Shown here: one piece after another, positions 37,701 through 63,058 of the stretch | Position numbering within the stretch: position 1 is the stretch's first letter | How the letters are laid out: every line of letters starts with the position of its first letter | IMG/VR virus record: IMGVR_UViG_3300025413_000002 | Coordinates: 3,044 to 67,043 of that record | Strand: one strand, 5' to 3' | Source of the DNA: a virus | DNA length: 64,000 bases | Made by a program: the position numbers and the translations under genes | The notes under the pieces: generated by a model | The model's input: only the letters and a program-made list of their open reading frames with translations | What the model was told of the DNA's origin: nothing | Database searches by the model: none

Positions 37701-38003
37701 GAGTTAAAAGGTGAATATGTCAAAGCTGAGCAAGAAAGAACTCAGATTCTGCAGCGCCTAACCGACTCTGTCTTAAACAAAGATTTTGGTGGTGGTCAGA
37801 AAGATGTACAGCCTGTTATCAATCAAATCCGTCAGTTTAACAAACGCTACCCAATGGATAAGGTAATGATTGACGGCGATGCTATCCAAAATACTTTGGA
37901 TTCAGCATTAGAAGCTAGGGCACGCACATATAAGGGCGTACGTATTCCAACCGAAGCTATGATTCCTTACTTTGTTCCTGTCTTAAATCAGGGCAAGAAA
38001 TAA
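31785..38003 (+). CDS. Very large internal virion / polyvalent protein with a zincin motif
   Basis: 2072 aa, last late gene, FLHEALH followed by EFVAYG, helical C-terminal half with YFPLMRHG. Confidence 0.7.
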   Translation: MPVVNIPNVGAVNFPDSMSQADILSAIQNDILPNYVNKQAQEEQQTQAPAQQAPTEGYGLASAFKDVISAPGDVLSPSQATLGAGEKGIVNAKQAVSNAQLAQLINNQAADKEQYGEYYERAPKSELEKISARDKTIEDKIQNLAEFGLERKAIEEKRGVNPLTKTLGNLRGSEEYKAADSFDQLKMIGNAMWDKRGDLPGYVGGVALESLPATVPTIVAAMAARFGGFGPKGAAIMGGSGSALTEFGNQYAELRAEGMDHKEAWEKAGVKSAVIGLFDAASFKSAGNSAGELLKNVEKGFIKEAAKETGKEVGVQALYGMAGEALGSVAINQKIDPLDVLEEGIGEIAGAPLEATSTFKFKQQEAVEAANKPTPPPVVNPPAPPAGPQITTAVGTPIVAAPLDTAEKQIAAKAAAPITPTTTPDVEEQAKAKSVELGIPLEDARKLVGAPAVAAPVSTVNAINTGNPELDTIANKLKAKYNLSNERAIKQATEVVRQQNIVNQGVQNGRTQPSTGVDAGINQPSVSVPQAGLQPTGGVTTSQPAGLASTIGTTGVPGVRAEAVQAAEPSALSTVPQNIIDLHAKSVAADEANKVSSTPANKRNATMAARRLGEAKAAQLGLTYEDYLKESNPQAIRALDDAVASQYNQLQETPAAVAPEVIPAPTATKGKRTGRPRVELTYEQQAEKKQAKAAQTKDWKAATKTVQAAIETLDTPEPIRDNFATQDAYLDAGVQHRARRNQALDTLHEISKGQQRDSKPGKAAKEALSHPSVTTQEQANLQQRIEIKKKAAATAGKPSKSETSGTPDSKYYSFDNASQAINYIANNGTLFERFLAKRLRPFLKGVNLIVVNAANEVPESLRTNFKGANGLYAATELNGKSYRTIYLRGESFGNSTDFQGVNNTVFLHEALHAAVNARIDEWRSLLEEGKEIPQKLGDAINGLMDVMRNASREYAYQTLTGTINVDPRVAQLFTSEAEGGIQIYDDLKEFVAYGLTEDSMQQFLFQIKGEIVPNQPGRFRSLFNRFVRSIRDLFDMDDSHQSALQDLIVLTEGLLKYDTELQEAPQVSAARQKKAKAQKLDQDTKKVMRSQNIHDIAEGFGGWVKDGHDFGDLVDLLKARFKGMTEDAIKTTLMTLRTSDIIRWMGDKIAGLKEIDEFTQKMAAMRTNMLEAYAAKADQLAKFIVSNKGSDKILGNAMHLARLKGVTPDAHATAIEAANNDPKVIELTKLIEDPATPAEKISNLTGQRTRRKNDIQIVYDAWTQLGKIEGGHEMYKMVRQFYKDNFNLQRHYLDERIERLQELPGDVKDEKTPKGQLMAEIRKMQEKDAIQEYFPLMRHGPAWFRESGTDGGFILFDEPWQRELYAIKRAKELGKPVEELFKDLTFTSGNDIASLRNTNQRESTMLKNMFEIIDKANLDEISSEDLKDSLYQTWLTTLPEASIRKQFMHAENVSGFSADIFRNFTESANRMASQTPRLKYADQMQTEITRARDSLAGDPDQAKLGLFIDTVGGRAMEQLNPPSPNQLASIATRYAYYMLLTGAGSAAVQLVAVPVMIYPVLGARYGYARASLKFAAYSNILGSMGVNIKETPETIRGYHIPSVTVSVADSSRIKNSKTLSAAYQALKERGLFAFTENNLLSQRGRTPLNATLSGPKKALRMTANIMSGLFSGAERVSREIAAMMAFEMHYDKTKNFEESVEKAIAAVQDNMGRYDAMERPELFKKLPVISQFKMYAANMTSFFVRHAYNSTKVISDPKLAFESMKILTGVLMMGAMFHGLKGMPLYSVVGAVVEALSDLGDDDEEKRRKRARNPLVAQNADLRFREFLNDNFGPVMGDVLYSGPISSLTDINIGAKTSFDNLWFRGGKPAKTNQEAFNNFVLANIGPAVSGILGQTGALDDFENGHIERGLEKMLPAFFKNPLVAGRLATEGAKTKGGDTIIKKEDVTAANVIAQAAGFAPTKLARQQEVGFELKGEYVKAEQERTQILQRLTDSVLNKDFGGGQKDVQPVINQIRQFNKRYPMDKVMIDGDAIQNTLDSALEARARTYKGVRIPTEAMIPYFVPVLNQGKK

Positions 38004-41170: not shown

Positions 41171-41398
41171 TTAAAGCTGGTCTAATAAACCTTGTATGGC
41201 AGGCTCGTATACTTCTTGTGGGTCGTGCAGACCCGTAAACCAATTATATACAGTCATCCGGCTAACTCCGATAATCCCAGCAACTTGTGCTACGGAAATG
41301 CTACACCGTATGCACTCCTTGCCGAGCATTACCCCAAGCTTTTTCTTATCGGCTTGTTTGTTTAACTGGACCAGCTTTACGCTGTAGCCGTGGCTCAT
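41171..41398 (-). CDS. XRE/Cro-like HTH protein
   Basis: SVAQVAGIIGVSRMTVYNWFTG. Confidence 0.75.
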   Translation of the reverse strand: MSHGYSVKLVQLNKQADKKKLGVMLGKECIRCSISVAQVAGIIGVSRMTVYNWFTGLHDPQEVYEPAIQGLLDQL

Positions 41399-42288
41399 TA
41401 GTCTACCGCACTCCACGCATTGATTACGTCGCCTAAACTCTTCTTACTAGCTGGCGCAACCTCAACTTTTTTAGTAGCACGTTTTACTGGTTCAGATACT
41501 TCTTCGTCCGGTTCCATTTGTGTTACAGGTTTCTTAACTGCAGGTGCAGCCAATGTAGGCTTTTTAACACCATCAGTTTGAGCTACGGTTAAAGTAATGG
41601 CATTCTTAGCTTCGATAGAATCACCAGCTTCTGCAGCTAAATGCCATTCATCTTCAGTGATGTGACGTGCTGGAGAGAACAACAACTTAGGTGTATCACT
41701 ATCTGTATCCAAACTAATTTGGGTTACGATTTGGTTAATGTTACGACCATTACCAGCTACGTATTTGATATAGCTTTCGAATGGATGCACATTACCTTCA
41801 CCCTTACCAAAGATAGAAGTAGATGGAAGTTGTAGCTGATACACATCACCGCTTGTGTCGCCTTCCAAAAGGACTGCAATCTTACGGGTGTAACGACATG
41901 CACGAGAGTTGCCATTGCCTGAACCAGCTACGTTTTGTGGACAAGTAGCGCATGAATCGCTTTGACGTCCTTCATCTTTAGTGTCCGCATGAACACCATC
42001 ATTAGATACACAAGTAGGGGGAACGATTGCATTTGGGTCGTACTTACCAGCATAGTAAATACGAGATACGCCCTTAGCTGCATTAACAATGATTACGTTT
42101 AATTCACGGCTAGTAATCTTACCAACTTCTTCGCCGCCTACAATCTTACGGAATACACCACCACGGATTGAAATGCGTTTACCACCGCCGCTAATCTTAC
42201 CAGCAAGAGATTTAGTTAAATCATTAAGGCCGTTAGCGCCTTGTAAGAATGCTGGTACTTCTTGATTAAAAATAGTTACGTTACTCAT
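41398..42288 (-). CDS. Putative ssDNA-binding/replication protein
   Basis: 296 aa, RISIRGGVFR, Cys cluster, flexible charged tail ending in W; within the replication module. Confidence 0.55.
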   Translation of the reverse strand: MSNVTIFNQEVPAFLQGANGLNDLTKSLAGKISGGGKRISIRGGVFRKIVGGEEVGKITSRELNVIIVNAAKGVSRIYYAGKYDPNAIVPPTCVSNDGVHADTKDEGRQSDSCATCPQNVAGSGNGNSRACRYTRKIAVLLEGDTSGDVYQLQLPSTSIFGKGEGNVHPFESYIKYVAGNGRNINQIVTQISLDTDSDTPKLLFSPARHITEDEWHLAAEAGDSIEAKNAITLTVAQTDGVKKPTLAAPAVKKPVTQMEPDEEVSEPVKRATKKVEVAPASKKSLGDVINAWSAVD

Positions 42289-45636: not shown

Positions 45637-46800
45637 TTGGACTCCAGATTGGTGGGTTTGGTTGGGTAGGTGACATAGTTACGGCTTGCCCTACATATTG
45701 TCCATTAGCGCCTGTATAAATAGTTACTTGCTGAGCAAATGCTTTTGGTGGAAAAGCCATAAATACCATACTACCTATTACTATCGCTGCTATTACTATC
45801 CATTTCATTTTGCTTCTCCTCTTTCATTTGGGGTTGGGGCAACTTAGTTTTTTTACCAAATATTGCTTCAAAGTTTGTATCAAACTTATCCATAGGTACA
45901 CTTAATGGGCGTGGTGCAATCCCTTTACCACCATCTCTAGGCATGTCTAAGTTTCTCCACATATTGTTTTAACTCCTCTGTCGGCATGTAATGAAATAAA
46001 ACAGAGCCATCAGGTAGTATTTCATAGTCGGGGGCATTACCGCCCATAAGCTTAAATGCTTGTAGTCCTTGCTCAAGAATCTCTATGAGTTCTTGGTGTT
46101 CTGTTGTGCTCATCTTGCCTCCATATATAAACCTACATTACCCAAAGCGTAGCCTAAAAATGCAATAGATAAGCCCACTTGACCTTTACGAAATAAATCA
46201 ACTGCCACAACTAAATACACTACGCCTATAACTGCAATTAACCAGCTACTCATTTTGCTTTCACTTTCCTTTTAGCTTTAAATATTGTTGGTTTAAGTCC
46301 AAAGTTTGTTATCTTTTTAAATTCAGGTACTTCGGGAGGTAGCATACGCAACACATCTAAAACAACATCTTCTAATACTTTACGCATCCCCTTCTTCATT
46401 CTTTTTTCTTCCACGTTTAACTGCAACAATCCCTGTTTCTTCTTTTGGTTTGCGTGCTTCGAGCATGTGGTCTGCTAGTTTATAGGCGTTTGTGGCGACT
46501 AAGCTCAAATCAGTTTGGTCAGTTAAACCTCGAGTCACAATTCCATTTATCACAAACATAGCAAAACAATCTCTTAAATCGTTGTCATTCATGGTAAACC
46601 CCACCTTCTGCAGTTCGTATTGCATTAGCCATTAGCTTAATCTCTACATGCAAGTTATAAAGAGCCATAAACGCTTCTTCTGTACGTCTGTCGTTCATTA
46701 GTATTTCAATATCGTGTATCAATCGCTTGGCACGCAATAAGTATTCTGTGTAGTCCACCATTTCTTCTCCTATATATCTAAATAATCTATTAACTGACAA
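45626..46800 (-). other. Run of small coupled ORFs (45626-45808, 45771-45944, 45937-46113, 46110-46253 membrane protein, 46380-, 46585-)
   Basis: Overlapping start/stop codons; 45937-46113 and 46110-46253 translated by hand. Confidence 0.55.
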
Positions 46801-47198
46801 GTTCTACTGTAATGCCGCATTTTACGTAAAGCTCTAGCTTCTAGCTGACGTATGCGTTCTCTTGATAAATCCATAATCTTGCCAACTTCTTCTAACGAAT
46901 GGTCATGATTCATATTGATACCAAAACGCAACCGTAATACTTTTCTTTCCCTGCGTGTTAATGAATCCAAAACATCTTTCATTACTTCTTTAAACTCAGC
47001 TACTTCATACGCATTCTCGGCTGTACTGCGTTCAATCAGCAATTCAATTGTTTCGGGATTAACTGTTTCATATGTAACATCATCTTCAATATAGTGCTTC
47101 GGAATCAAATGCCCAGTTATAGGCGCTCTATCCAAAGCACTAAGAATGTTCTGCTCCGTATAGTCGTTGTAGTGTTTATAAAGCTTACCCACTAACAA
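46770..47198 (-). CDS. Sigma70 region 4 domain protein
   Basis: LDSLTRRERKVLRLRFGI..DHSLEEVGKIMDLSRERIRQLEARALRKMRH, close to RpoD region 4; no region 2. Confidence 0.9.
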   Translation of the reverse strand: MLVGKLYKHYNDYTEQNILSALDRAPITGHLIPKHYIEDDVTYETVNPETIELLIERSTAENAYEVAEFKEVMKDVLDSLTRRERKVLRLRFGINMNHDHSLEEVGKIMDLSRERIRQLEARALRKMRHYSRTCQLIDYLDI

Positions 47199-51241: not shown

Positions 51242-51533
51242 GCGTTAATCCTTTTAGTATCTCATCTAACATTGTTAGGTTCGTTTCATTGATAACCAAT
51301 GTAACGCCTCCAGCCTCATTTATTTTTTGTAGTTCTCGTTCTTGTAGAGCCGTTGGCTTGTTGTCGCCAGCTTTGCACTCTATGGCTAGGAATTTACCGC
51401 GCACGCAACATATGATGTCGGGGATTCCTGAACGCCCAAACCCAGTCATAACTGGGTAGAAATAATATGCGCCGTATTGCTTGAGCAACTTAACGCAATT
51501 CTCTTTTACTTTCTTTTCGGGTGTGCTTGCCAT
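51222..51533 (-). CDS. VRR-NUC domain nuclease (resolvase-like)
   Basis: PEKKVK, GIPDII, FLAIECKA..KPTALQ, AGG. Confidence 0.88.
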   Translation of the reverse strand: MASTPEKKVKENCVKLLKQYGAYYFYPVMTGFGRSGIPDIICCVRGKFLAIECKAGDNKPTALQERELQKINEAGGVTLVINETNLTMLDEILKGLTHERTKP

Positions 51534-51539
51534 GCCACG

Positions 51540-51567
51540 ATTATAACATGGTTCTTTACTCTGTCAA
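51540..51567 (-). promoter_or_regulatory. Sigma70-type promoter TTGACA-16-TATAAT
   Basis: Perfect consensus boxes just upstream of the VRR-NUC ATG, so the transcript is probably leaderless or nearly so. Confidence 0.8.
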
Positions 51568-51604
51568 AGAGTTTATTATATTTATTTTATGGGGGTTAAT
51601 ACTA

Positions 51605-51769
51605 GGTGGGAATGAGGGGTTAGTATATTAGCACGCCCCTCGTCGTGTTCGTGAAAGGTGGGTAGTGAGGAATCAACCTTTGTGCCTAGACCCCAGCTAC
51701 CACGACAACTCGCTTACCGCATATACAAGACATCATAAGCTATTGTCTTTTACGAAATGCTCTAGGCAC
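51605..51769 (+). ncRNA. Candidate multi-pseudoknot structured element
   Basis: At least seven complementary segment pairs in an intergenic gap; G-U wobbles favour the + strand. Confidence 0.55.
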
Positions 51770-51777
51770 TTAGTTCT

Positions 51778-52170
51778 TTACTTCCTACGCTCAAGTATAG
51801 GTAGGTTTGCTTCTGTCGGAATGTAGATAACTTGGTTTTGAGTATGTTCCAAATTGTTTACAAACAGATAACGCAAATAATCTTCGTTGTTCTTTAAGCT
51901 ATCGCCAATAATCTGATTCGCTTTGGCTACGCCCTTAGCACGCTCTACTTCAGCATTAGCTAGCATTGTAGCGGAATCCATCTTAGCTTGCGCTTCTTGC
52001 ACCATCACTTGCTTACTGAAATTGGCTTTCGCCAACTCAGCTTCGCCCTCCATCTTTTGGTGGTAAACATTATACATAGGCATACCATACATACAACTAC
52101 CTACACCCGATGCAATAACAAACACAACCAATGCACCTAACTTGATAAGTGATTTTAAATCATCATTCAT
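51778..52170 (-). CDS. Membrane-anchored SPFH-like coiled-coil protein
   Basis: TM helix, EAELAKA/EAQAK repeats, YLRYL, VIYIPTEANLPILE. Confidence 0.65.
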   Translation of the reverse strand: MNDDLKSLIKLGALVVFVIASGVGSCMYGMPMYNVYHQKMEGEAELAKANFSKQVMVQEAQAKMDSATMLANAEVERAKGVAKANQIIGDSLKNNEDYLRYLFVNNLEHTQNQVIYIPTEANLPILERRK

Positions 52171-52637
52171 TTTACTTTCTCCATGTTAGCAATCTCACGC
52201 TTTAGATACCACTCGGCTTTCTTTAAGTCCTCAATCTTCATGCCTTTGTAGTGCGCACGAGATACATACTTCACAACATTACCCAAGTTATAACCCAACT
52301 GCTTAGCTTCGATAAAATCAATCGTTTCAATACCACCAGTTTTGTAGTGGCTTGGGCTATTCACATTGTCCACGCTAAAGTCCATGACTTTATATTGATT
52401 ACCGCTAACGCCTTGGAATACTCCAGCACCCACCGCCTTAACTGTTTCACTACCAATTCTAGCTTTCGGTTTCTTTTTAACTGCAACATCACCAGCCTTA
52501 AACAATTTGTGCTTGACTACATACACATAGTTCACATCTACACCTGTTGCCTTGGCAATCTCGGTAGGCTTTGCACCTTGGTTACGCTTTAAGAAAGCCT
52601 CGACCTTTTGTGCTTTTGTATACGCTTTACGACCCAT
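52167..52637 (-). CDS. HTH fused to a DUF3310 (SaV-like) domain
   Basis: KPTEIAKATGV N-terminus; VNSPSHY..GGIETIDFI..NVVKY..RA..EDLKKAEWYL. Confidence 0.8.
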   Translation of the reverse strand: MGRKAYTKAQKVEAFLKRNQGAKPTEIAKATGVDVNYVYVVKHKLFKAGDVAVKKKPKARIGSETVKAVGAGVFQGVSGNQYKVMDFSVDNVNSPSHYKTGGIETIDFIEAKQLGYNLGNVVKYVSRAHYKGMKIEDLKKAEWYLKREIANMEKVK

Positions 52638-52638
52638 C

Positions 52639-52809
52639 TCACTTCTCCTTGTTGATAAAATTAACTAACACTTTTCGCATCTCGGCTTGCCATTTATGCG
52701 AATACTTCCCCTTAAAAAACTCTACTATCTCTGTGGATAGTCTGATACTGGTGCTGATAAGTGGGGGGTTCTTTCCTTTCCCCCTCGTTCTCTTTTTAAC
52801 TTCTTCCAT
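52639..52809 (-). CDS. BrnA antitoxin-like ribbon-helix-helix protein
   Basis: RGKGKNP..TSIRLSTEIVEFFK...WQAEMRKVL. Confidence 0.7.
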   Translation of the reverse strand: MEEVKKRTRGKGKNPPLISTSIRLSTEIVEFFKGKYSHKWQAEMRKVLVNFINKEK

Positions 52810-52810
52810 A

Positions 52811-52999
52811 TCAATCCTTCTTTCCAAACTCGTAATCGGTTCGGTATTCAGATGGTGGAATCCAACCATACTTACGCCAAACCTTTTGCACATCTGCACC
52901 GCCCTGATATACAAACTTTGAATTTGTATCAATAGCCAATGGTAGTTCTGCTTTTGGCTTTTCTAGTTCCTGTTTGAATATATTTTTTAAACCTAACAT
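52811..52999 (-). CDS. Small early protein
   Basis: GGGAG SD; ATG lies within the palindrome; WRKYGWIPPS. Confidence 0.7.
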   Translation of the reverse strand: MLGLKNIFKQELEKPKAELPLAIDTNSKFVYQGGADVQKVWRKYGWIPPSEYRTDYEFGKKD

Positions 53000-53015
53000 T
53001 GTTAGTTCTCCCTAG

Positions 53016-53879
53016 TTAAACAACCACATATGAATCTTCGGTAGCACGATAACCCATACCCTCAACTACTGTATTTACTGCAACCAACTTCAACATACCT
53101 AACTTCAACTTCAACTCTTGAGGCAACTGCTCAGTAGGGCACATAGTAGTCCCGCCCTTGTTTCTAATGATGTATTCAGTATCCCTAATTAGAATGGTAG
53201 ATGCCTCGCCAGCATGAAATGCCTTCTTGAGGGCTTCATTTATTTGTAGCTTCTCATGGGCTTCCATATACTTAGCGCAACAATCTTTACCCTCTTGGTT
53301 TAGAGTAGCTACAAAGTTATCCCAATTATCCCTAACATACTGAGCCATCGTAGATTGCAAACCGTTGTAATAACCCCTTGTATCTTGGTTAGCCTTACCC
53401 ACTAAGCGATTCAGATTATCACTTACCTCGCTTAGGGCTTTCTCAAAATACTCATCAGTAGTCTTAGGACTGAAATGCTTTTTAACCAAACGCAAAGCCA
53501 CATCTAACTTAGTAGTCTTGGTGCATGACTGTCTGTCTTTCGTTGCTGAGATTCGGTCATTACCCACTACCCATTGGTCGCCCCGACTATAACTTCGGTC
53601 ATAGGCAATATAGCCAAGCATCTCACGCTTTTCATAAACGCCAAATGTTGTGGCTAAACGAACTCGAGTCCCATCAGCCAATCTTTCATGATAGTTTCCT
53701 CTTGTTGCAACAAAAGTCCAATGGGGATTGCGATTGATTAGTTCGGTCAGCAAGGTAGCCAAGTGGGGAATAACACCGCCCAACTGTTCACCCCTGTTGT
53801 TCTCCGCATACTTATCAAAGTCTACGCTAGGAAATTTATCCTTCGGGATACACTTCATCTCATCACTCATTTTCTGCAT
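53016..53879 (-). CDS. Hypothetical early protein
   Basis: 287 aa, C-terminal LP.ELKLKLGMLKL..VEGMG. Confidence 0.7.
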   Translation of the reverse strand: MQKMSDEMKCIPKDKFPSVDFDKYAENNRGEQLGGVIPHLATLLTELINRNPHWTFVATRGNYHERLADGTRVRLATTFGVYEKREMLGYIAYDRSYSRGDQWVVGNDRISATKDRQSCTKTTKLDVALRLVKKHFSPKTTDEYFEKALSEVSDNLNRLVGKANQDTRGYYNGLQSTMAQYVRDNWDNFVATLNQEGKDCCAKYMEAHEKLQINEALKKAFHAGEASTILIRDTEYIIRNKGGTTMCPTEQLPQELKLKLGMLKLVAVNTVVEGMGYRATEDSYVVV

Positions 53880-54132
53880 TACCTTTCAATAGTTTAATTA
53901 ACGCCAACGCTTCTTTCCTGTGTTTAATCCTATCTGCTACTAAGTCCATACCTTGCCATACTTGATACCGCCCTCGTCTTGGCATTATTAGTCTTGGTGC
54001 ATTAAATATGTTTTGGTATGTGTTTTCAAACAAGCTATTGATTAGTTGCATCTTAGTAGTGCCCATAGATTGTGCCAATGCTTGCGTATAGGATTTACCC
54101 ATCTGCACAAACACCTCATCGCTTACGCCCAT
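53863..54132 (-). CDS. Hypothetical early protein
   Basis: 89 aa, coupled to neighbours. Confidence 0.55.
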   Translation of the reverse strand: MGVSDEVFVQMGKSYTQALAQSMGTTKMQLINSLFENTYQNIFNAPRLIMPRRGRYQVWQGMDLVADRIKHRKEALALIKLLKGNAENE

Positions 54133-54482
54133 TATCTTTTCCTCACTTTCGGCTTAGGCGCACCCAACAACTTACGCATTACCGCTTGCTCATACTCTTG
54201 TCGATACAAACTATGTAACTTTTCTTGCAACAATTTTTTCTCATACTCAGTTAGATAAAACTCGGGTATGGCTAAACTTAATTCTTCACCATCTTCTACT
54301 AACTGGCTCATTGGTCTAGTAGGTAGAAAGTGATACCACTTGCTGTCGCTAATTGAATCTCCGTAGTTCTCTATATCACCAAACACAAACTCAAGCGGGT
54401 TAGAATCCATACGCTGAAGCAACAACTCAACACCCTTACTTACTGTATCTTCTTTCATTTCTCTCCCACCTTTCTGATACAT
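54132..54482 (-). CDS. RMESNP-family protein, paralogue 3
   Basis: GVELLLQRMDSNPLEF. Confidence 0.65.
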   Translation of the reverse strand: MYQKGGREMKEDTVSKGVELLLQRMDSNPLEFVFGDIENYGDSISDSKWYHFLPTRPMSQLVEDGEELSLAIPEFYLTEYEKKLLQEKLHSLYRQEYEQAVMRKLLGAPKPKVRKR

Positions 54483-55234
54483 ACTTGGTCGCCATCGTGA
54501 TACAACTCCGCTTTACCTTCATGCAACGCTTCAAATACTTTCATGGTTATCAGCTTATGAAAGCGCAACTCTAATACTGCTTTAACCCACAAACCTAACA
54601 ATGTTAGGATTACCGCAAATAAAAACATATCTGAATAAGTTAGTTCAATCATTTAATTCTCCTGTAATAACTTCGCATACCCTCTAGCTTCCTTAGCCGT
54701 TAGGTATTGTTTAATAATCGCAACTGGATAAGTGTTTCTATAAGTTCCCACATAAGTTTGAGCCTTGACCACCGCCCAGTTCCCCTTCTTAATCATATGC
54801 GCCATGTATACATAGTTTGGTCTAGGTTCATCTGTGTTATCCCACATCACTTCCTCTCCTCAGGTTTACCAGCTAGCTTGCCAATGCGATAGATAGAGTC
54901 AGGCAATATGGTTATGGTGAATTTGCCCGCATCGTCTTGCTCCCACACATGGAATGTATTAGGTGCATTAGAGTTATATTTCTCATCAAACATCTCAGCT
55001 TTAGTTAGCATCTCACCTAGCCTTAGGGCATCCTCAGTATCTACAATGTAGCTTTTGTAGCCGAGGTTAATCACACACTTACTCATAGTCGAAATCTCCT
55101 GTGTCGATTTTGTCTTGCAATAGGACAATCGCTTGCATCCAACCCGCCCTAAAATACTGACGAGCCATGTTTCCAAACGAGCCAGCTTCCACCTCAGGGA
55201 ATAAATCATCAAACTCTTCCTCCCATCTTTCCAT
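54455..55234 (-). other. Small early ORFs 54455-54652 (TM), 54653-54850, 54847-55086, 55079-55234
   Basis: Coupled ORFs with SDs; 55079-55234 (MERWEEEFDD...) translated by hand. Confidence 0.55.
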
Positions 55235-55245
55235 TTCATATCCTC

Positions 55246-56451
55246 CTAGTTCACATAGATAGTCTTACCAACGGGAGCAACCGCATTACCCCCACCAACA
55301 ATCGCCCACAACATCGGCACATCTTGCCACTCCTCAGGTGTTCCCCAATCACCGATATATCCATCAGTTAGATTGATGATGCACTCAGGCTTGATACTTT
55401 GTTCCTTCAAGTGGTGCGCCATACATCTTGGGTCTGTGCCACCACCGCCCATTACTTTAGTCTCACTAACAATGTTAGATACTGCTGAACCCTCATACTG
55501 CTCATGGTTTGCTACTGACGCATCCCAATACACTAGGTCAATCTTCTGTGGCGATACCTCATTCACAATGCCTTGCACTTCACTCAAACAATCAGCAATC
55601 TCCCTAGCACCTTGACTACCGCTAGTGTCAATGCCAATCGCAATATGTCCAATCTTCTCACTCACCATGCTAGGCATATAACAATCCATCGCTAAGTATC
55701 TGCGATTAGGTCTGCGCCATGATGATGAATCACGACCAGCGCATACAGTCTTAACAAACTCACGCAACTGTTCACGCCAATCCACCTTAGGGTTTAACAA
55801 TTCATCTAGCTCACGATTCATACCCATACCGCCCTTGCCTTGCATTTTGGTTTGAGCTATCTGTCCTGAGCGCAACGCTTGGTCAATGTCCTTCTCGAGT
55901 TCCTTCTTGACTGCATCGGTTAGGTCTTGCGCCCCTTCCCAATCATGGTCATCGAACCCATCGCCACCGCTAAACCCTTCCTCTTTGAGAATGTCATACA
56001 CTTGCTTAGTATTCATACCCTCGAACCGCTTATCAACCAAGCCTATTACCTTGCCATCCTTCATTGGCATAGCAATCACATCTTGGTTAGGGTCTAGCTT
56101 TACTAACTGCAAATTGATTACATAATCACAAGCGGCATTAGTTAATTCCTTGTCTTGCTCTGCTAGCTTGCGCCATGTAAACAAATGACGATACGCTTTG
56201 TGCAACGCCTCATGCAATACAACGAACGCTAACTCCTTATCGTCTAACATCTTGACGAACTCACGCCCATATATCTCATCACGACCATTGGTGCAAGCAC
56301 TAGGAATATCATCACGCACATAAGTCTTACCGACCATGAGGATACCTGACCACAATGCAAACCTAGCATTACGCATCAAGGCAATCTTCACCTTCTTGAG
56401 TCTGCGTTCTTCCTTGCCATCGCTTACAACTTCGTTTGTCTTATCTAACAT
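55246..56451 (-). CDS. Metallopeptidase-like (DUF2201) plus VWA domain protein
   Basis: TNG, HEALH, NAACDYVIN; MIDAS DTSGS, GGGTD, LTDG. Confidence 0.88.
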   Translation of the reverse strand: MLDKTNEVVSDGKEERRLKKVKIALMRNARFALWSGILMVGKTYVRDDIPSACTNGRDEIYGREFVKMLDDKELAFVVLHEALHKAYRHLFTWRKLAEQDKELTNAACDYVINLQLVKLDPNQDVIAMPMKDGKVIGLVDKRFEGMNTKQVYDILKEEGFSGGDGFDDHDWEGAQDLTDAVKKELEKDIDQALRSGQIAQTKMQGKGGMGMNRELDELLNPKVDWREQLREFVKTVCAGRDSSSWRRPNRRYLAMDCYMPSMVSEKIGHIAIGIDTSGSQGAREIADCLSEVQGIVNEVSPQKIDLVYWDASVANHEQYEGSAVSNIVSETKVMGGGGTDPRCMAHHLKEQSIKPECIINLTDGYIGDWGTPEEWQDVPMLWAIVGGGNAVAPVGKTIYVN

Positions 56452-56461
56452 TGTTAGTTCC

Positions 56462-56614
56462 CTATATCAAATCACTCATCTTAGAAATACCTCGTTCATA
56501 AAGTAGCTTACGCAACTTACCCATAGCATGGTATTGAATCTGCCTGACTCGCTCTCTGCTTATGGTGTCCCGCTTAACTACCTTACGCTTTTTGGGCTTG
56601 GCTTCTTCGCTCAT
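56462..56614 (-). CDS. 50-aa peptide resembling sigma70 region 4.2 (not in ORF track)
   Basis: MSEEAKPKKRKVVKRDTISRERVRQIQYHAMGKLRKLLYERGISKMSDLI; ATG overlaps the ATPase stop. Confidence 0.7.
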   Translation of the reverse strand: MSEEAKPKKRKVVKRDTISRERVRQIQYHAMGKLRKLLYERGISKMSDLI

Positions 56615-57678
56615 AGCAAATCTTCATTCTTGGCAACCCACTCAGTAAACTTCTTAGAGCTAAATGCAATCGCTTGCTTAGTCGGGGCTTTAGCTACATT
56701 GATTGCAAAGCACGCTTGCCACTCGCTTTCAAATCTCTCCATGTATTGCATGAAGGTATCAATAGAGTTCTTATCAATCTTAGCAATCGCACCGAATACA
56801 GTAATCGCACAAGCACCAGCACTCTCAGGCACATGAGACTTTTTAGGGTCATTGAGGGTGTCCTCCCATGTAGGCAACTGGTCTGCATACTCGATATACG
56901 CTTGCATATCACGACTTGCTGACTCACCGACTGCGCCTGTCATCGCTGAAATCATAGTGTCTTGGTTCAACTTATCACGCTTTCTAACAATGTTAGATAC
57001 AGTCTCAAGTGAACGAGGCGATACAAATGCCGTTTGCACTTTCTTAGGGTTATAGATATACGGGTTATCATTCTGCCCTTCTTCGGTATAGCTAGCCATA
57101 GAGTGAGGGAATTGGCGAACCCATGCACATACCTCAGGTGCAATATCATTATTGATAGCCCATGCCAACCATTCCTCAGCGTTAGGTTTGCGAACTGTAA
57201 CTGGCACGATACGATTGCGAGTATGCGCTTTAAGACTATCGCCTACACCATCACTACCTAGATTGCCCGTCATGAAGATGATTGAATCAGGGTTTACTTC
57301 CACATCACCCAATCGTGGGTTTGCTTTCTCGAGTAATGGATGGAGCATATTCTTAACTGGCTCAGCACCCTTAGTGAACTCATCTAACATTGTTATAACT
57401 GGCTTACCTGTGTGCATCTTGAATCTGCGATTAGGGTAATAAGCCGTTGTGCGAGTTTCATGGTCTACTACTGGCATAGCAATATCGCCCAAGTCCATGT
57501 TCGGCACATCAATGTAGGCAATCTCATGAGATGGTAGCTTTGCGCCCAAAGCCTTAAGCAAAGATGATTTACCAATTCCTGGCTCGCCTTGTAATAGATA
57601 GCGATTCTCAGGGGTGGCGAGTAATAACTCAGATGCCTCAGCCAATGTAATTGTCTTACCAAAATGTAATTCAGCCAT
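56611..57678 (-). CDS. AAA+ ATPase (MoxR-like)
   Basis: GEPGIGKS Walker A, MLDEF Walker B, TGN sensor 1, RNR finger, SPRS sensor 2. Confidence 0.9.
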   Translation of the reverse strand: MAELHFGKTITLAEASELLLATPENRYLLQGEPGIGKSSLLKALGAKLPSHEIAYIDVPNMDLGDIAMPVVDHETRTTAYYPNRRFKMHTGKPVITMLDEFTKGAEPVKNMLHPLLEKANPRLGDVEVNPDSIIFMTGNLGSDGVGDSLKAHTRNRIVPVTVRKPNAEEWLAWAINNDIAPEVCAWVRQFPHSMASYTEEGQNDNPYIYNPKKVQTAFVSPRSLETVSNIVRKRDKLNQDTMISAMTGAVGESASRDMQAYIEYADQLPTWEDTLNDPKKSHVPESAGACAITVFGAIAKIDKNSIDTFMQYMERFESEWQACFAINVAKAPTKQAIAFSSKKFTEWVAKNEDLL

Positions 57679-57769
57679 TTCTACTTTTCCTTTTGTGTTT
57701 ATCTAACATTGTTATATTTACTGCGCTCTTTACTACAACTACTTACTACTTTATTATTTTTATACATCT

Positions 57770-57798
57770 ATTATATCAAACCGCACCACGAAATACAA
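57770..57798 (-). promoter_or_regulatory. Early promoter TTGTAT-17-TATAAT
   Basis: Shares CTTGTATTTCGTGGTGC with the 61301 promoter. Confidence 0.85.
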
Positions 57799-58039
57799 GT
57801 TATCTAGTCAGTCTTGGACTAGAGATAAATATGCTCTCGCTCTTTTTAAACTCATAAATCTTTTAACCTTTATCGCTTCCTTTATTGGATTACCACTAGA
57901 GTATGTTGTTATCCTATTGCTTCGAACCAATACCAAGTCAAATAACAAATAGGGGAATCTCGGGAAGCTAGGTAGCACCCAATAAGACTCACGCCAACTA
58001 CTTTCCCATTGAACTCCGCTTGCACCCATGCCTCTCCCC

Positions 58040-58927
58040 TTAAAATAAATGCGCCCAAGAATCTTTTTTGATAGTTCCCAACGGCAACTCGACCACATCA
58101 AAGACTGTATCTTTATGGCGAGCAAAGATTAGATTGTTCATCGCATACTTCACACTTTCAGGTGTTATCGAGTAGCCCATGTTCTTCCAATAGTGGCGTT
58201 TGCCAAACTGTTTAATAATAAGTAGGCACGCCTTGTATCGCATCTCGTGGTCATCTGACCCAATCATGGCAAACATACTCTCAACCTGTTCTTTGTTGCG
58301 TAGTGCAATATCGTTTGGTAGCTTGGGTCTAACCTCATTACCATATCTATCGCCCTCACCAAACACACGAACGAACTCAGCATCACTTATTGGTTCACTA
58401 TCGGTCAGCTTAACCATACCCATAAAGAACTTAGTAAACTCTGCATAGTGCTTTCTAACATTGTTAGCTTCTTTGCGATTCACACGATATACATGGTCAG
58501 GCTCTACATTTAAAGGCAACAAGCGACCATTGACCCAGCCAAGCATCAGCCCACTTCCTTGAAAGCGATACTCGCCACCATTGACACCGACTACTAAGTT
58601 TGACTGATTGACCCTACATCTAACTGGCAACACATCTTCAATAAACTGTGCCGTAGTTGAACTGCTCCAACCGCCTGACTTGAGTTCAATATTTCCATCT
58701 GGATGAAAAGTAACAACTGGCGTGCGATAGCATATGCACTCAATCGCTCCGCTTGTTAAGTTCTTAGCCATATAAAACTCGCTAGCCCGATGCCGATGTC
58801 CCAAGGCAATACGCCCACCATTTGCACCACCTCCACGAATAGGCTTAGTGCTTTCGAACTTGGCTAGTGCCTCGTTGTAATTGCGTAGGAATGGTATCCC
58901 TGTGTTTCTTGCGCTTCCGTATCCCAT
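58040..58927 (-). CDS. Hypothetical early protein
   Basis: 295 aa, AGGAG SD, YRTPVVTFHPDG. Confidence 0.75.
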   Translation of the reverse strand: MGYGSARNTGIPFLRNYNEALAKFESTKPIRGGGANGGRIALGHRHRASEFYMAKNLTSGAIECICYRTPVVTFHPDGNIELKSGGWSSSTTAQFIEDVLPVRCRVNQSNLVVGVNGGEYRFQGSGLMLGWVNGRLLPLNVEPDHVYRVNRKEANNVRKHYAEFTKFFMGMVKLTDSEPISDAEFVRVFGEGDRYGNEVRPKLPNDIALRNKEQVESMFAMIGSDDHEMRYKACLLIIKQFGKRHYWKNMGYSITPESVKYAMNNLIFARHKDTVFDVVELPLGTIKKDSWAHLF

Positions 58928-58942
58928 CTCGTTTCTCCTTAG

Positions 58943-59407
58943 TTATCTAACAATGTTAGTTTCGTCTGTCTTAACTTCTATCTCTGTGTTGCGTCTACCC
59001 AATAACCCGCTTGCCTCAAAGCACAATAGCGAACGGCAATAAAACATATCAAAGTCCACATCCTCACCAAAGTTATCCTCCTCGATATCGTCTGTTTCCT
59101 CACCGACTCGATTAAATAACCCTGATATACCCTCGACCCCTTGCATCTGCTCCCATAGCTCGTTCCACGCCATGACCGCATCATAGTCGGGATACCATTT
59201 CCATTGTTGTGCATGGAATACAAACCGCCCACAATCCCACCCAATGCACTTTTGGTCTTGTTCGTTTGACATCATCAACTCATAGAACTTGGATAGCTTG
59301 ATAAGCCCAATCATTTCCTTGAACTTGGCAACACCCTCCTCCCGAGTAGATGGGTAATTAAACGCATCCACGCTAAACCCTCCAGCCACATCACTTCGAT
59401 AGCCCAT
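58943..59407 (-). CDS. Hypothetical early protein
   Basis: MGYRSDV...WKWY...RVGEETDDIE. Confidence 0.75.
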   Translation of the reverse strand: MGYRSDVAGGFSVDAFNYPSTREEGVAKFKEMIGLIKLSKFYELMMSNEQDQKCIGWDCGRFVFHAQQWKWYPDYDAVMAWNELWEQMQGVEGISGLFNRVGEETDDIEEDNFGEDVDFDMFYCRSLLCFEASGLLGRRNTEIEVKTDETNIVR

Positions 59408-61224
59408 TACTGACCCCCTAACTTAGTCGTAAACCCAGCATAAAACGCATCCACATAAGCAATCTCAATAGTCATAAACCCATCCATCTTAAAAGGATTC
59501 CATTCCTTGCCTTCTGCATATCTGACCCATGACTTGAGTGCCTTTTCGTGGATTGTTAATTGTTCATTGGTTAGTTCGCCTTCTTCATAGCTAAGCGTTA
59601 CACCCCAACTACCCCTACTGTTTGCTTTTATATGTTGTTCTTTCGGTATCTTTCTTAGCTCCCAACCCCATAACTTCATATCACTCTCCCTTCGTATTCT
59701 CGTAAACTCGCCTACTCACCCGTAATTAGCTTCTCTTTGCCTTTGAAATACCCCGCAAGAAATGCACCTTGCACAAGATAGCGCCATTGGTGGTAGTCCT
59801 CGCTTATTACTTTCGGGTTATCTGCTGGTGCTTTCATCCACAAGTTCTTATACATATCAGCATTGTTCTGCTCTAGCTGGTTTATAAACTCACGCCACTT
59901 TTGCCCAGCATCATCTTTGATTGTCATTCTCATCTTCCTTTCCCATTTAGCTTCTAGTCGTTTTGTTTTAGTTAGTCCCATTACTCCCCCGCTTTTTCTA
60001 ACATTGTTAGGTTATGTTGTGCGAGCAACTGCCACGCATCTTTACTGACTAGGGAATTACCCCAGTCGCTATCGTCTTGTATCACTTGTAGTGAGTAAGA
60101 TTGAATAGCCGTAATCAGGAACGCTTCTCCCAACGGGTCTAACTTGGCACTCTTTACTATTTTGTCTATCGTTTTCATGCAAACTCCCTTATCCAATCTA
60201 TGTAAACTTCATTCAAACTAAGCCACCTAGCACTACGCTTCCTATCAGGCTTATCTAATGGGTAATTCAATAGCATCTCATCACCCTTGCACCGCACCAA
60301 TACAAAAAACTCAGGCTTATCAGGTTTTCTATATAGTTTTACTACCCTCATGTTGTCCTCTGTTCCTAGCTTAGCTAGTCCGTTTCGGGTTTAACTGCTT
60401 TAACTGGGATAAGTCTGTAATCATCATGTAGTTCGATTTGTTTATGGGTGCAATAGTGAACTTGCGCTTCTTAGCTTCCACATCACCGCACCGCAAACAA
60501 GTCTGATAGCCTAGCACTACACGCCTTGCATCTACTTCCTCACCACACTCACACTCAAAGCCATATAACATTGTTAGTTCCTTTCACTCGTCTGCCTTCG
60601 TAAATTTCAAATAAAACCCAGCCATAAATGCTTCTTGGTAGGCTTTGTTTATGGCTATTTCTACATGACCAGTAAAGCCTTTACCCCACACATTTTCTTT
60701 TTTCCATATGTCCCACTCTCTAGCCATAACCCTACTCATTACTAAATAGTCGTCTGCCATAGTTAATCTCCATAGTTAGTCATAGCTAACTTAAATGCTT
60801 CTAACTCATCATCTGCATAGAGCATCATGTAGTCCCTCATGGTCATACCGCCAAACTTGGCTTGCCACTCGACCCTGTATCTACCCTCACCCTGTTGCAT
60901 AGCTTTGACCTCTAGCACTTTGAAATTGGTATGTAATCTAGGTGTCAAGTTAAGGTCTTTGTTCGGGTTGGGTGTTCGTAGTCGCATATAGGCTCGGGGA
61001 TAAGTAAGGGTTAGTGTTATGTAGTGTGACGAAATAATGTCTGCTATCTAAGCTACGCAATATGGTTGTGGATTCTCCTCTTTCCCATATCTCGTAGGTC
61101 TTACCCTTAATTTTTAGTATGTCCCCAGTTTGCCACTTTATACTCATATCGCACCTCGAATTAAGTTTGCTATAAAAGCTAGTAGGAGTAGCACTAGCAT
61201 GAAATCAAAGAATTTATCTAACAT
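59407..61224 (-). other. Array of small early ORFs (59407-59679, 59712-59981, 59981-60178, 60175-60351, 60371-60571 Zn-finger, 60584-60760, 60763-60987, 60950-61147, 61144-61224)
   Basis: Contiguous coupled ORFs with SDs; CECG...CLRC in the 60371 ORF. Confidence 0.6.
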
Positions 61225-61300
61225 TGTTAGGTTCTCCCTTTCGTTTTGGTTGGTTAGTATTGTTAGGAACTGAATATGTAATGCTCTATCTAATATAACC

Positions 61301-61329
61301 AGTATAGCATAGTGCACCACGAAATACAA
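61301..61329 (-). promoter_or_regulatory. Early promoter TTGTAT-17-TATACT with extended TG
   Basis: Conserved with the 57770 and 62431 promoters. Confidence 0.85.
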
Positions 61330-61363
61330 GTAATCTAGTCATGGTGTGATTAGAGAAAATAGG

Positions 61364-61690
61364 TAATGTTAGGAAAAATGAGGGTAATGTTAGGAGTAAT
61401 GTTAGCAGAAAGTTAGGAATTTGCTAACAATATAAAACCCAATAAACATAAGGCTTTGGTAGGAATGTTAGGAGTAATGTTAGATTGTTAGTAAAATTTA
61501 TATATATATGGCTTCCCCTAGCTTTCTAGCATATGCTTTTCTTCTTTGCACTTGCTGAGAACCTCTGCCAAACTTTTACCCCCATTCATAGGTCAAAAAA
61601 AAGCTAACATTCTAACAATACGCCAAGTCCTTGATTTTAAACGCAAAAAACAAAACGCACCACTAACATTACAAAATATTTCCTAACAAT
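61364..61690. repeat. Array of palindrome half-sites around an AT-rich core (origin-like)
   Basis: AWTGTTAG-type units at about 61364, 61385, 61397, 61463, 61475, 61484; inverted CTAACAWT at 61424, 61604, 61612, 61663, 61683; TA run near 61499-61509; IHF consensus at 61624-61636. Confidence 0.75.
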
Positions 61691-61784
61691 ACAAAATCTA
61701 GGGCTATCAGCACTTCCGTTCTTCCTTTCGGAACTATCACAAAACTATCATAAAATTATTTTTATGGAATCAAAAAGTAAATTG

Positions 61785-61817
61785 GAAAAAGAAAAACCCC
61801 CCAAAGGCGGGGGGTTT
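61785..61817 (-). terminator. Terminator after the first early gene
   Basis: AAACCCCCC...GGGGGGTTT hairpin with an A-rich left flank (U tract on the minus strand). Confidence 0.7.
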
Positions 61818-61850
61818 GAGGAAAACCTAACAGTGTTAGGTTTTTACTTC

Positions 61851-62366
61851 TTACAACATATTTAAATCAACTCCCAACGCTTGCAACGCTTCGCTGATTT
61901 TCTGTTGAGCCTTGACAATCTTAGGGTCTAAGCCTGTCTGTTTGCCATTGAATTTCCACAGGGCGGTCAATTCCTCAATGTTGCGTAGCATTGGACTGCG
62001 GGCATGGATAGCACCTGAACCCTCACCCTCACCCTCTGAACTCTCACCCTCAACGCTTGGAACTTCACCAAACAAACCCAATGCCTTAGCGTTTTCCTTA
62101 CCATCAGCTTGCACCCTTGCCCATACTGTTGAGGGGTTAGAATGTCCCGCTTGCTTCATTGGCTTGTAAAACTCTTGCTTCTCAGCTTTGACTACCTTGC
62201 CCGCTTCGCTAGCGTCTGACCTGTCAATGTCATACCACTTGGCGGGGAACTTACCCTCTACTGCTAGCTGATTGAGTGCTTCAGCATACTTCTTAACTGC
62301 GCCATACTGTCTGCCTACTGCTTCAGCTACTTGGTTGCGTAATGCTACTAGATTGATTGTTGTCAT
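61851..62366 (-). CDS. First early gene, 171-aa hypothetical protein
   Basis: AAGGTG SD, own promoter and terminator. Confidence 0.8.
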   Translation of the reverse strand: MTTINLVALRNQVAEAVGRQYGAVKKYAEALNQLAVEGKFPAKWYDIDRSDASEAGKVVKAEKQEFYKPMKQAGHSNPSTVWARVQADGKENAKALGLFGEVPSVEGESSEGEGEGSGAIHARSPMLRNIEELTALWKFNGKQTGLDPKIVKAQQKISEALQALGVDLNML

Positions 62367-62430
62367 GATGTATTCACCTTATAAACTATTATCTAATTGG
62401 GTAGATAACTAACCCTTACTGCATGATTCA

Positions 62431-62459
62431 AATATAGCAAATCGCACCGCAAAATACAA
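62431..62459 (-). promoter_or_regulatory. Early promoter TTGTAT-17-TATATT with extended TG
   Basis: Third copy of the CTTGTATTT.G.GGTGC promoter. Confidence 0.8.
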
Positions 62460-63058
62460 GTTTGTAGGAAACTAAAAGTAAAAAGTAAAATCTAACATTG
62501 TTAGGTATATCCACGAACCCCCACCCCCAAAAAATAAAACAAGGAATCCTACATCAGCCCATACTCTATAATCCGCGCAACCGATGCCGGTACTTAAGAA
62601 TACCCCCCACCCCCTATTCATTTTGCACCACAAGATACACATCGTGTGTATAGAAACACCCCCCTTGCTCTTTTTGGGTCCCCCGAAAACCCCACCCCCA
62701 TATGTATAAAAAATTGAGAAAAGTGTACATATTAAAAAAACATGTATAAAAAAGTTTCCCGAACGGGAAGAATTGATGAAAAAGTGTGCAAATTTAGGAA
62801 AATATTCCCGAACGGGGTATTTTGTAATAAAAAGTAAGTCGATAGAAACCCTACATAAAGTTAGGGTTCAGTGCTACTAGACAAACTAAATGACTCATTA
62901 ATGAGTCCGTATGTGGGTTAAAGCCTTATTTATGAGTCAACCAAACTGCTAATAGCCCGCACAATATGCATAAAATGTCGACAAAAATGTACATATCCCA
63001 ACAATATGTATACAAAACTGCAAATACTAGACATATTAAAAACCGTCTAGTAACAATA

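Follow-up and report, generated by a model that had tools for sequence, protein, structure and literature searches.

The DNA analysed here is a stretch of 64,000 nucleotides, positions 3044 to 67043 of the 67,043-bp virus record IMGVR_UViG_3300025413_000002 in IMG/VR; we refer to the whole of this stretch as the window. Our subject is a 13-bp palindrome, CTAACANTGTTAG, which is repeated along one arm of this phage genome, and the protein that may read it. The plus strand (1-38003) carries structural genes, among them those for the portal, for virion proteins, for a 927-aa ejection-like protein and for a 2072-aa DarB-like/LPD polyvalent protein; the minus-strand genes extend leftwards from about 62.4 to 38.2 kb. 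The first minus-strand block holds small open reading frames (ORFs) without assigned function, a Zn-ribbon protein, an AAA ATPase and a DUF2201 metallopeptidase/VWA protein; then come, in this order, a BrnA-like ribbon-helix-helix (RHH) protein, an HTH_23-DUF3310 protein and an Hjc-like protein, and finally a replication set with PolA, a sigma-70 region-4 protein, a PD-(D/E)XK nuclease, an SNF2 helicase and a DUF927 primase-helicase. The array of palindromes coincides exactly with the first minus-strand gene block and starts at the divergent early promoter region. Because of its gene order and of its promoter-like elements, we infer that the arm bearing the array is expressed early.

An earlier reading of this DNA, made from the sequence alone, had counted 12 exact copies of the palindrome and three with one end mismatch within 11.2 kb, and our recount agrees. 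All 12 exact copies in the window fall within 51266-62504. Shuffled sequences (n=100) give an expectation of 0.01 copies and none of the 100 reaches 12, in line with the sequence-only reading, which had put the chance expectation far below one copy. With at most one mismatch to CTAACANTGTTAG, the window contains 17 matches versus 0.24 expected and, rather than being spread evenly over the genome, 15 of the 17 are confined to the 11.2 kb. The three imperfect copies in the domain differ at an end, two of them (57384 and 57703) by a change of the last G to T and the other (60565) by a change of the first C to A. Outside the domain a single near-copy had been noticed; there are actually two, one with an end mismatch (38985-38997, within the DUF927 primase-helicase gene) and one with an internal mismatch (10859). 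The remaining 3 kb of the record hold no exact copy. Neighbouring sites of the array are separated by 319-1727 bp, which matches the earlier figure of about 0.3-1.7 kb.

Two of the 15 copies are intergenic, on either side of the first minus-strand gene, which encodes a protein of 171 aa (61851-62366, minus strand; the first gene hereafter). Site 1 (62492-62504) is exact and reads CTAACAATGTTAG on the minus strand; the other (61827-61839), also exact and with a C/G centre, is located directly 3' of the first-gene stop codon and adjoins the terminator hairpin of that gene. Four copies provide an ATG start codon right after a Shine-Dalgarno sequence: two exact ones following AGGGAGAA (61218-61230, and 52993-53005, which opens a 62-aa ORF), one with an end mismatch whose ATG starts the 66-aa Zn-ribbon gene (60565-60577; gene at 60371-60571), and an exact one whose ATG starts the DUF2201 gene (56445-56457), a layout that relatives share. 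Four more lie just 5' of a Shine-Dalgarno sequence or gene start. Three of these are exact: 59998-60010, in the 3' end of one ORF and 5 nt 5' of the next gene's Shine-Dalgarno sequence; 58947-58959, in the 3' end of a 154-aa ORF and just 5' of the Shine-Dalgarno sequence of a 295-aa gene; and the last exact copy, 51266-51278, in the 3' end of the Hjc-like gene. The fourth (57703-57715, one end mismatch) precedes the Shine-Dalgarno sequence of the AAA gene. Five copies are deep within genes: 58455-58467 in the 295-aa gene (exact, peptide ANNVR), 57384-57396 (one end mismatch, ITMLD; position occupied in about 38-40 of 62 relatives) and 56984-56996 (exact, SNIVR) in the AAA gene, 55466-55478 in DUF2201 (exact, SNIVS; the orthologous position is filled in 6/6 genomes first compared), and 54595-54607 in a 65-aa ORF (exact, LTLLG). 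As had been claimed, the copies are translated in different frames. Two reading frames are used, and we recovered LTML(D/E) at 61218, 59998 and 51266, ITML at 57384, SNIV at 56984 and 55466, TNIV at 58947, NNVR at 58455 and LTLL at 54595.

Within the array, and only on its minus strand, there are three copies (0 expected) of a 30-nt promoter-like element, CTTGTATTTyGyGGTGC....TG(C/A)TATAnT. We designate them P_E1 (62431-62460; CTTGTATTT..GGTGC..TGCTATAnT, with -35 TTGTAT and extended -10 TGnTATAnT), P_E2 (61301-61330) and P_E3 (57770-57799, one mismatch). These are probably early promoters. Relative to their putative transcription starts, palindromes are found at about -75 (the centre of site 1, 5' of P_E1), +69 (61218, from P_E2) and +53 (57703, from P_E3), and none covers a -35 or -10 element. 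The possibility that the palindromes are themselves promoters was rejected: they have no conserved flank, and the promoter-like elements form a separate 30-nt repeat. The first-gene module is closed by an intrinsic-terminator-like hairpin with a T-run (61794-61817, minus strand). Between this terminator and P_E2, the non-coding segment 61261-61690 is filled by 12 CTAACAWTAC half-sites in two opposed groups, 5 pointing one way and 7 the other. Lone CCTAACA half-sites occur in this window at 0.51 per kb within the domain versus 0.09 per kb outside it. At the distal edge of the array, just 5' of the Hjc-like gene and about 260 nt upstream of the last palindrome, we found a perfect sigma-70 consensus (TTGACA-16-TGnTATAAT, 12/12; 51567-51540, minus strand), which may be the promoter of the replication block.

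The array is conserved across relatives. A 14-mer scan of IMG/VR returned about 20 contigs with 5-22 copies each, and ten further near-complete relatives (G001-G010) carry 14-27 copies apiece, each in a single domain of 7-13 kb. In G001-G005 there are 19, 16, 4, 21 and 13 exact 13-mers and 21, 19, 15, 27 and 17 copies of the 11-bp core TAACANTGTTA; their domains span 8.6-12.8 kb, each opening at the divergent start of the same gene block. G006-G010, with 14-19 copies, show the same one-domain pattern. The GC content of array genomes ranges from 42.5 to 55.5 % (42.8-54.2 % in G001-G005). The AAA protein, used as a marker, is encoded by at least 366 IMG/VR contigs, many of the loci being related fragments, so that locus counts are not counts of independent events.

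Several sites occupy orthologous codons of the AAA and DUF2201 genes across relatives. When 62 distinct AAA genes are aligned by codon, 53 of them have an intact S-N-I-V-R site, whose third-codon positions are 0.84-0.97 identical versus a gene mean of 0.60 (rank 21st of 1053); the second AAA site is kept in about two thirds of the genes. Since synonymous identity is raised at the S-N-I-V-R site, selection acts on the DNA sequence of the intragenic sites itself, and the nucleotide-level selection that had been proposed from this one genome is borne out in its relatives. There is also a mild preference for gene junctions: in six genomes, 33 of 107 in-domain sites are at most 50 nt from a stop codon, versus 19 % for random positions (binomial p = 0.003), with the majority of sites still intragenic. 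Start codons are used less often; only 12 of 146 sites in 11 genomes consist of a Shine-Dalgarno sequence plus ATG (counting sites of the gap-1 form, i.e. with half-sites one base pair apart as in the 13-mer). On this count, a coupling to start codons was rejected as the function of the palindrome, and we consider it an accommodation instead. Sites are spaced more evenly than at random in five genomes (coefficient of variation 0.52, 0.67, 0.65, 0.56 and 0.40, versus about 0.94 for the null), the departure in G002 (0.87) not being significant; the median spacing is 567 bp.

The palindrome behaves as duplex DNA read by a symmetric dimer. A logo of 115 sites oriented by the local gene strand, a(C)CTAACAWTGTTAG(G)t, is fully symmetric, its flanks carry no asymmetric signal, and its centre base (A 54, T 51, G 7, C 3) has no strand bias. 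Among perfect-core sites that deviate at positions ±6 (n=30), 28 do so on one side only, and bases at ±6, ±7 and ±8 pair as often as predicted from the column frequencies alone (permutation p 0.48-0.65), that is, there is no covariation. This independent decay of half-sites without compensation favours duplex DNA and a dimer over an RNA or DNA hairpin. Some features do speak for a hairpin, which might serve translation starts as an RNA element, cap a terminator or be a single-stranded promoter of the N4 kind: CTAAC-AWT-GTTAG could fold into a stem of 5 bp and a loop of 3 nt, the 12 start-codon sites place the ATG directly after the Shine-Dalgarno sequence, and several copies lengthen the terminator stems 3' of the first gene. 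The covariation test, however, largely refutes it, and what is conserved is the sequence, beyond pairing. The gap-0 and gap-1 forms of the site allow no viable loop with full 6-bp arms, nor is there a conserved flank at a start site. Hairpin promoters of the N4 type would be expected to have strand-specific loop bases and a conserved start region, whereas the phage sites show neither bias, covariation nor flank; nor was a virion RNA polymerase recognised, the 2072-aa protein matching DarB-like/LPD families only, at its C-terminus, with its first 1100 residues unassigned. We regard a hairpin function as the least credible of the explanations considered here.

The sequence-only reading had suggested looking for relatives with different palindromes. 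Relatives do carry the same array, and some lineages have variant palindromes with another spacing or another half-site. Among 80 loci found via the first gene, 77 have a gap-1 array; the three without the 13-mer have the same half-site in gap-2 or gap-0 arrays, as CTAACA-NN-TGTTAG (14 copies) or CTAACATGTTAG (7-8 copies). When loci with at least four sites were taken from a set of 516, without de-duplication, gap 1 was found in 91, gap 2 in 29 and gap 0 in 6, some loci being mixed. A gap-3 class, CTAACA-AAA/AAT-TGTTAG, has 16, 14, 10 and 6 copies in four loci. Site centres are A/T-rich in all spacing classes. The half-site itself has changed to CTGACA-NN-TGTCAG in three contigs (9, 10 and 10 copies; in one of them, G015, all nine copies are in the last 9 kb of 28.8 kb), and to CTTATA-NN-TRTAAG in L584 (5 copies versus 0 expected); a scan of viral contigs for the CTTATA class gave single AT-rich matches among the matches listed. 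The AAA proteins of the variant contigs are at least 80 % identical to those of CTAACA-class phages. In the CTGACA class, both the first gene and an 81-aa helix-turn-helix (HTH) protein of the replication module, to which we return below, differ. The locus L487 has a dense gap-2 array of 12 sites; the 7.5 kb 5' of its AAA gene revealed no homologue of the first gene and no Zn-ribbon gene.

Switching of specificity among such close relatives is expected of a binder encoded by the phage and is hard to square with a host factor, and it points to a phage-encoded protein that co-evolves with its sites. The alternative, a host global regulator or nucleoid protein recruited or titrated by the phage, would account for the same 13-mer being common to phages of 38-59 % GC. 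It also draws on a match in the literature. According to PMC11826091, binding by MtvA, a MazE-like antitoxin of the Pseudomonas aeruginosa plasmid pPAD8, requires in electrophoretic mobility shift assays the core TAACATTGTTA of its operator; this single autoregulatory operator has a core identical to the 11-bp core of the phage sites. The identity may be a coincidence, because no MazE-like protein was detected in the phage: no SpoVT-AbrB/MazE-fold protein gave a Pfam match in any scan of the phage ORFs. Against a host protein, which had been listed among the candidate binders, weigh the lineage-specific variants (spacings of 0-3 bp, and the CTGACA and CTTATA switches) together with the range of host GC. 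Moreover, the distantly related phage KPP25 has no palindrome array, and a 14-mer scan of 185,579 species' genomes gave single, scattered, chance-like matches among the about 80 listed of at least 120 matching stretches, which is weak evidence. We consider a host binder very unlikely.

Within the phage, the first gene is the best candidate. It always opens the array, and in most loci one site is found 20-300 nt upstream of it and another 12-100 nt downstream. The order of the module is a conserved G-rich box, site 1, a TTGCTT-17-TGnTATAAT promoter, often a second site before the Shine-Dalgarno sequence, the first gene, and a site in or beside the terminator. The gene is present in 62 of 64 distinct loci with at least 7 kb of sequence 5' of AAA. 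A word-indexed search yielded more than 200 homologues, and an exhaustive one 226 representative clusters, all of 46-250 aa and stand-alone, with no fusions. Their conserved motifs are HSNPSxxWxRV and RSPMLRNxEEL. In other genomes the same position is filled by a diverged subfamily B that keeps W-x-R-V-K and R-N-L; it is homologous to subfamily A (hhalign probability 94.6 %, E 7e-8), and one or the other is found in 11/11 complete genomes. The family is new and undescribed. Two copies of the first gene occur in G004 (57558-58070 and 59011-59538), in tandem and each bracketed by sites, and the same tandem arrangement is seen in L528, L530, L536, L558 and L563-L565.

In the AlphaFold2 model of the first-gene protein, an acidic Gly/Glu linker connects two helical domains (predicted local distance difference test, pLDDT, 81). 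Modelled as a homodimer it scores 0.74, versus 0.00 for the best of three controls, and passes a mark that 20 of 30 solved homo-pairs and 1 of 23 single chains reach in calibration. The homodimer runs share at least 77 % of contacts, with a partner pLDDT of at least 79, and the interface is formed by the long N-terminal helix and the whole C-terminal domain. The model supports a symmetric dimer and is silent on DNA. The base just outside CTAACA is C in 0.63-0.88 of cases in subfamily-A genomes, and C in 0.34-0.44 and T in 0.35-0.43 in subfamily-B genomes, a difference confounded by ancestry. The genome G011 (L611) has, in place of the first-gene module, an unrelated 201-aa ORF (L611 10866-11468, minus strand) with no Pfam match above threshold. 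G011 has 3 palindromes in its early arm of about 10 kb, versus 8 in about 7.4 kb of its 92-95 % identical sister G012; the two have diverged too recently for this comparison to decide the matter.

We infer that the palindromes are bound by a protein. The reading we favour, in which we have about even confidence, is that they are sites for a phage-encoded dimeric binder, most likely the first-gene product, that silences the early domain as a whole. Each subunit of the dimer would read one (C)CTAACA half-site across the A/T centre, and the array would offer about one site per 0.5-0.8 kb over the early arm of about 11 kb. It begins at what would be a small autonomous module, with promoter, first gene and terminator bracketed by sites and with the half-site cluster adjoining. 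The first-gene product would be the earliest protein made, act by autoregulation on its own module and later fill the sites of the entire arm, and early transcription would be silenced over the domain by roadblocks or bridging rather than by the covering of promoters. The positions of the sites fit a roadblock or domain action better than classical occlusion, since the -35 and -10 of the three promoter-like elements are spared. A domain-wide repressor is suggested by this avoidance of promoter cores, by the several sites 3' of putative transcription starts, by the even cover, by the autoregulatory look of the module and by the switching of specificity. The same silencing would hit an incoming related phage and lead to homotypic exclusion. 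The sequence-only reading had a protein coat or loop the domain. What stands of this is that the array belongs to the early domain, is under selection at the nucleotide level and is probably bound by a protein in a sequence-specific manner; of the candidate binders it listed, the first gene is the one best supported.

Several observations weigh against the first-gene product in this role. No DNA-binding fold was found in it: the family has no Pfam match (with 28 members, then with 84), PDB sequence profiles give no match, and Foldseek searches of PDB and BFVD return nothing with E <= 0.001. In the ESM Atlas, only its own family and chance-level leads were found. Its two folded domains are only weakly basic, with net charges of about +1.4 and +1.6. 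Its link to the array is confounded by shared ancestry, and the AAA, DUF2201, Zn-ribbon, 287-aa, Hjc-like and BrnA-like proteins and the 81-aa HTH are equally universal. G011 keeps a 17-copy half-site cluster without a first-gene homologue, and of the 5 sites that its sister G012 has outside the module, 3 are still present in G011, which is compatible with neutrality at 92 % identity. The dense array of L487, with the first gene undetected in 7.5 kb of upstream sequence, is a further difficulty. Shut-off by the protein that is made first also needs a delay that the reading does not explain. Finally, a rival with a canonical DNA-binding fold and an almost invariant recognition helix exists in the same genomes.

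This rival is the 81-aa HTH protein (41171-41416, minus strand) of the replication (middle) module, which would act in an early-to-middle switch that shuts the early arm. It is present in 11/11 complete genomes and also in gap-3 and CTGACA-class genomes, and its recognition helix, GVSR[MQ]T[IV]YNWF, is nearly invariant, which suits the invariant half-site. The fold is a canonical tri-helical HTH, with weak Pfam matches that are all under the curated cut-offs (HTH_23 1.2e-4, HTH_7, HTH_3). Its delayed synthesis would be a natural timer, and, as for the first gene, no homologue turned up among 50,697 deposited phage records. In G015, of the CTGACA class, the helix reads VSRATIYNWF, with an A at the variable position; that M/Q position, however, varies already within the CTAACA class, and the A variant is weak evidence. 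The gene is unlinked to the array, 10 kb past the last site, it adjoins the DUF927 primase-helicase and could have a role in replication, there is no evidence that its product dimerises, and the spacing variants could not be traced to it with the available sequences. We take it as a serious rival, if a doubtful one, and as the runner-up to the first gene.

The other two candidates in the arm fare worse. The BrnA-like RHH protein (52639-52932, minus strand), in 11/11 genomes, is disfavoured because the outward, DNA-facing residues of its beta-strand vary (S/S, H/N, Y/P, T/A and so on) between genomes with a common CTAACA site. The HTH_23-DUF3310 protein (52167-52637, minus strand) is disfavoured as well, being absent from G006, which has a gap-0 array. 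Neither of the two, nor the Hjc-like protein, is tied to any site class.

A phage protein might also bind the sites for the handling of the DNA that enters first, as a ratchet, for condensation or protection, or as a parS/matS-like centre, with the half-site cluster as a nucleation point. The even, orientation-free spacing over one contiguous domain, the dense cluster of half-sites or palindromes beside the first gene, and the avoidance of core promoters would all fit this idea, as would the podovirus-like architecture of the genome, which has large internal virion proteins and is of distant kinship to KPP25 and N4-like phages. N4 and T7 take up their DNA in steps. In all genomes inspected, moreover, there is a conserved non-coding box 5' of site 1 that could mark a genome end. 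On the other side, the 127-bp terminal repeat of the record, 127 being a common k-mer size of assemblers, is probably an assembly overlap, for which reason we treat the record as circularly assembled. The ORFs scanned gave no match to ParA/ParB, MatP or a motor protein, and fast switching of specificity is more typical of regulatory or immunity pairs. We rate the handling of entering DNA as rather unlikely.

Returning to the first-gene protein as binder, a bolder version would make it, together with its site array, a programmable pair in a phage clade of lytic type, whose specificity diversifies for phage-versus-phage exclusion, with a novel DNA-binding fold. The resident protein would clamp the early arm of incoming genomes that carry the same sites, and it would stall their entry if that is driven by transcription. 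This version is a speculative one, and we think it probably wrong.

Operator arrays that extend over whole transcription domains are known from few systems, namely the stoperators of mycobacteriophages, the KorB sites of RK2 and the conserved inverted repeats (CIRs) of phiC31, all of them in temperate phages or plasmids. Stoperators are dozens of copies of about 13 bp along transcription units that stop elongation beyond promoters, and the specificities of sites and repressors diversify. The phage array resembles them in its many copies along transcription units and beyond promoters (15 in 11.2 kb, none over promoter-like cores). Stoperators are asymmetric, orientation-dependent, read by a monomer, spread genome-wide and mostly intergenic, in temperate phages. 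The phage sites, in contrast, are palindromic, orientation-free, confined to one arm and more than half intragenic, and no lysogeny genes were found among the ORFs scanned with Pfam. In form, the array is also like that of KorB, whose O_B site on RK2 is a 13-bp palindrome present in about a dozen copies on a replicon of about 60 kb, both being short palindromes repeated 10-20 times. KorB differs in being a ParB-family CTPase sliding clamp that acts with KorA, and the phage sites are denser and in one domain only. Stoperators of Cluster A mycobacteriophages and the L5 gp71-type immunity repressor are the subject of PMC9283540 and PMC6550527, and PMC11790492 deals with RK2 KorB and its silencing of genes from sites remote from promoters. 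No member of the ParB/KorB family came up when the early and replication ORFs were scanned with Pfam, and the first-gene family is without a Pfam match.

The repressor c of phiC31, a temperate Streptomyces siphovirus, binds many palindromic CIRs of 17 bp through the early region. The sole link found between it and the first-gene protein is a chance-level lead from a language model (0.80 to PF25746). The matS site, another 13-bp palindrome with a degenerate centre, marks the Ter macrodomain of Escherichia coli with 23 copies in 800 kb and is bound by MatP, the fold of which is known. By that count, the phage array is about 35-fold denser, and no MatP-like protein was found. We found no description of the array in the literature searched, which did not cover subscription papers; the only relevant motif match was PMC11826091.

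A logic similar to that of the three operator systems may here be at work in an abundant, uncultured freshwater clade with a podovirus-like architecture. The natural variants of specificity, with four spacings and three half-sites, offer ready material for a covariation analysis that could reveal the binder and its recognition code, and the array shows cleanly how nucleotide-level selection can be superimposed on coding sequence. The leading candidate has no recognisable fold and no cultured representative. If exclusion or the handling of entering DNA proved to be the function, this would be a new kind of interference between phages.

The sequencing runs linked to the clade are freshwater metagenomes, with no RNA run among those listed. 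Contigs from four freshwater DNA runs were either identical pieces or distant relatives and gave no usable polymorphism or end information. A megablast of the early arm against the 50,697 phage records gave no match, and a close cultured relative was not found. The closest deposited phages are Pseudomonas KPP25/phiR18 and the Rhizobium RHph_TM phages (PolA 36-37 % identity), and the closest deposited AAA proteins are at most 24 % identical. Neither an integrase nor a partition domain was found among the ORFs scanned with Pfam.

The strongly conserved non-coding box mentioned above, GTGCAAA..TAGTGTGTA..GGACTCC..GGGGTGGGGG, lies at about 62505-62660, 5' of site 1, and has a counterpart at the equivalent position in G001-G010. 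It might be an end of the genome or a signal for packaging or ejection. In four metagenome runs, contig depth over 62629-63000 was several-fold above that of the remainder. In the divergent intergenic region 62700-63057, a 54-nt AT-rich repeat (ATATGTATA...TGTACATAT...) occurs three times, and a CCCGTTCGGGAA hairpin twice.

Among the neighbouring genes, the 66-aa Zn-ribbon protein (60371-60571, minus strand), universal in the clade, has a C4 motif that we take to be TraR/DksA-like, and no Pfam match. The sigma-70 region-4 protein (142 aa; 46770-47198, minus strand) adjoins PolA and has region 4 as its sole domain (Pfam E 1.7e-19); hidden Markov model searches detected it in 2-3 of 11 relatives. 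A 50-aa ORF at 56462-56614 also has a weak match to sigma-70 region 4. In the virion arm, the C-terminal 660 residues of the 2072-aa protein (31785-38003, plus strand) match DarB-like antirestriction/LPD families, and its first approximately 1100 residues are without assignment. The best-conserved early genes are those of the MoxR-like AAA ATPase (56611-57678, minus strand) and of the DUF2201 metallopeptidase/VWA protein (55246-56451, minus strand), at 63-71 % identity, and the AAA ATPase is distantly similar to N4 gp24 (22-24 % identity).

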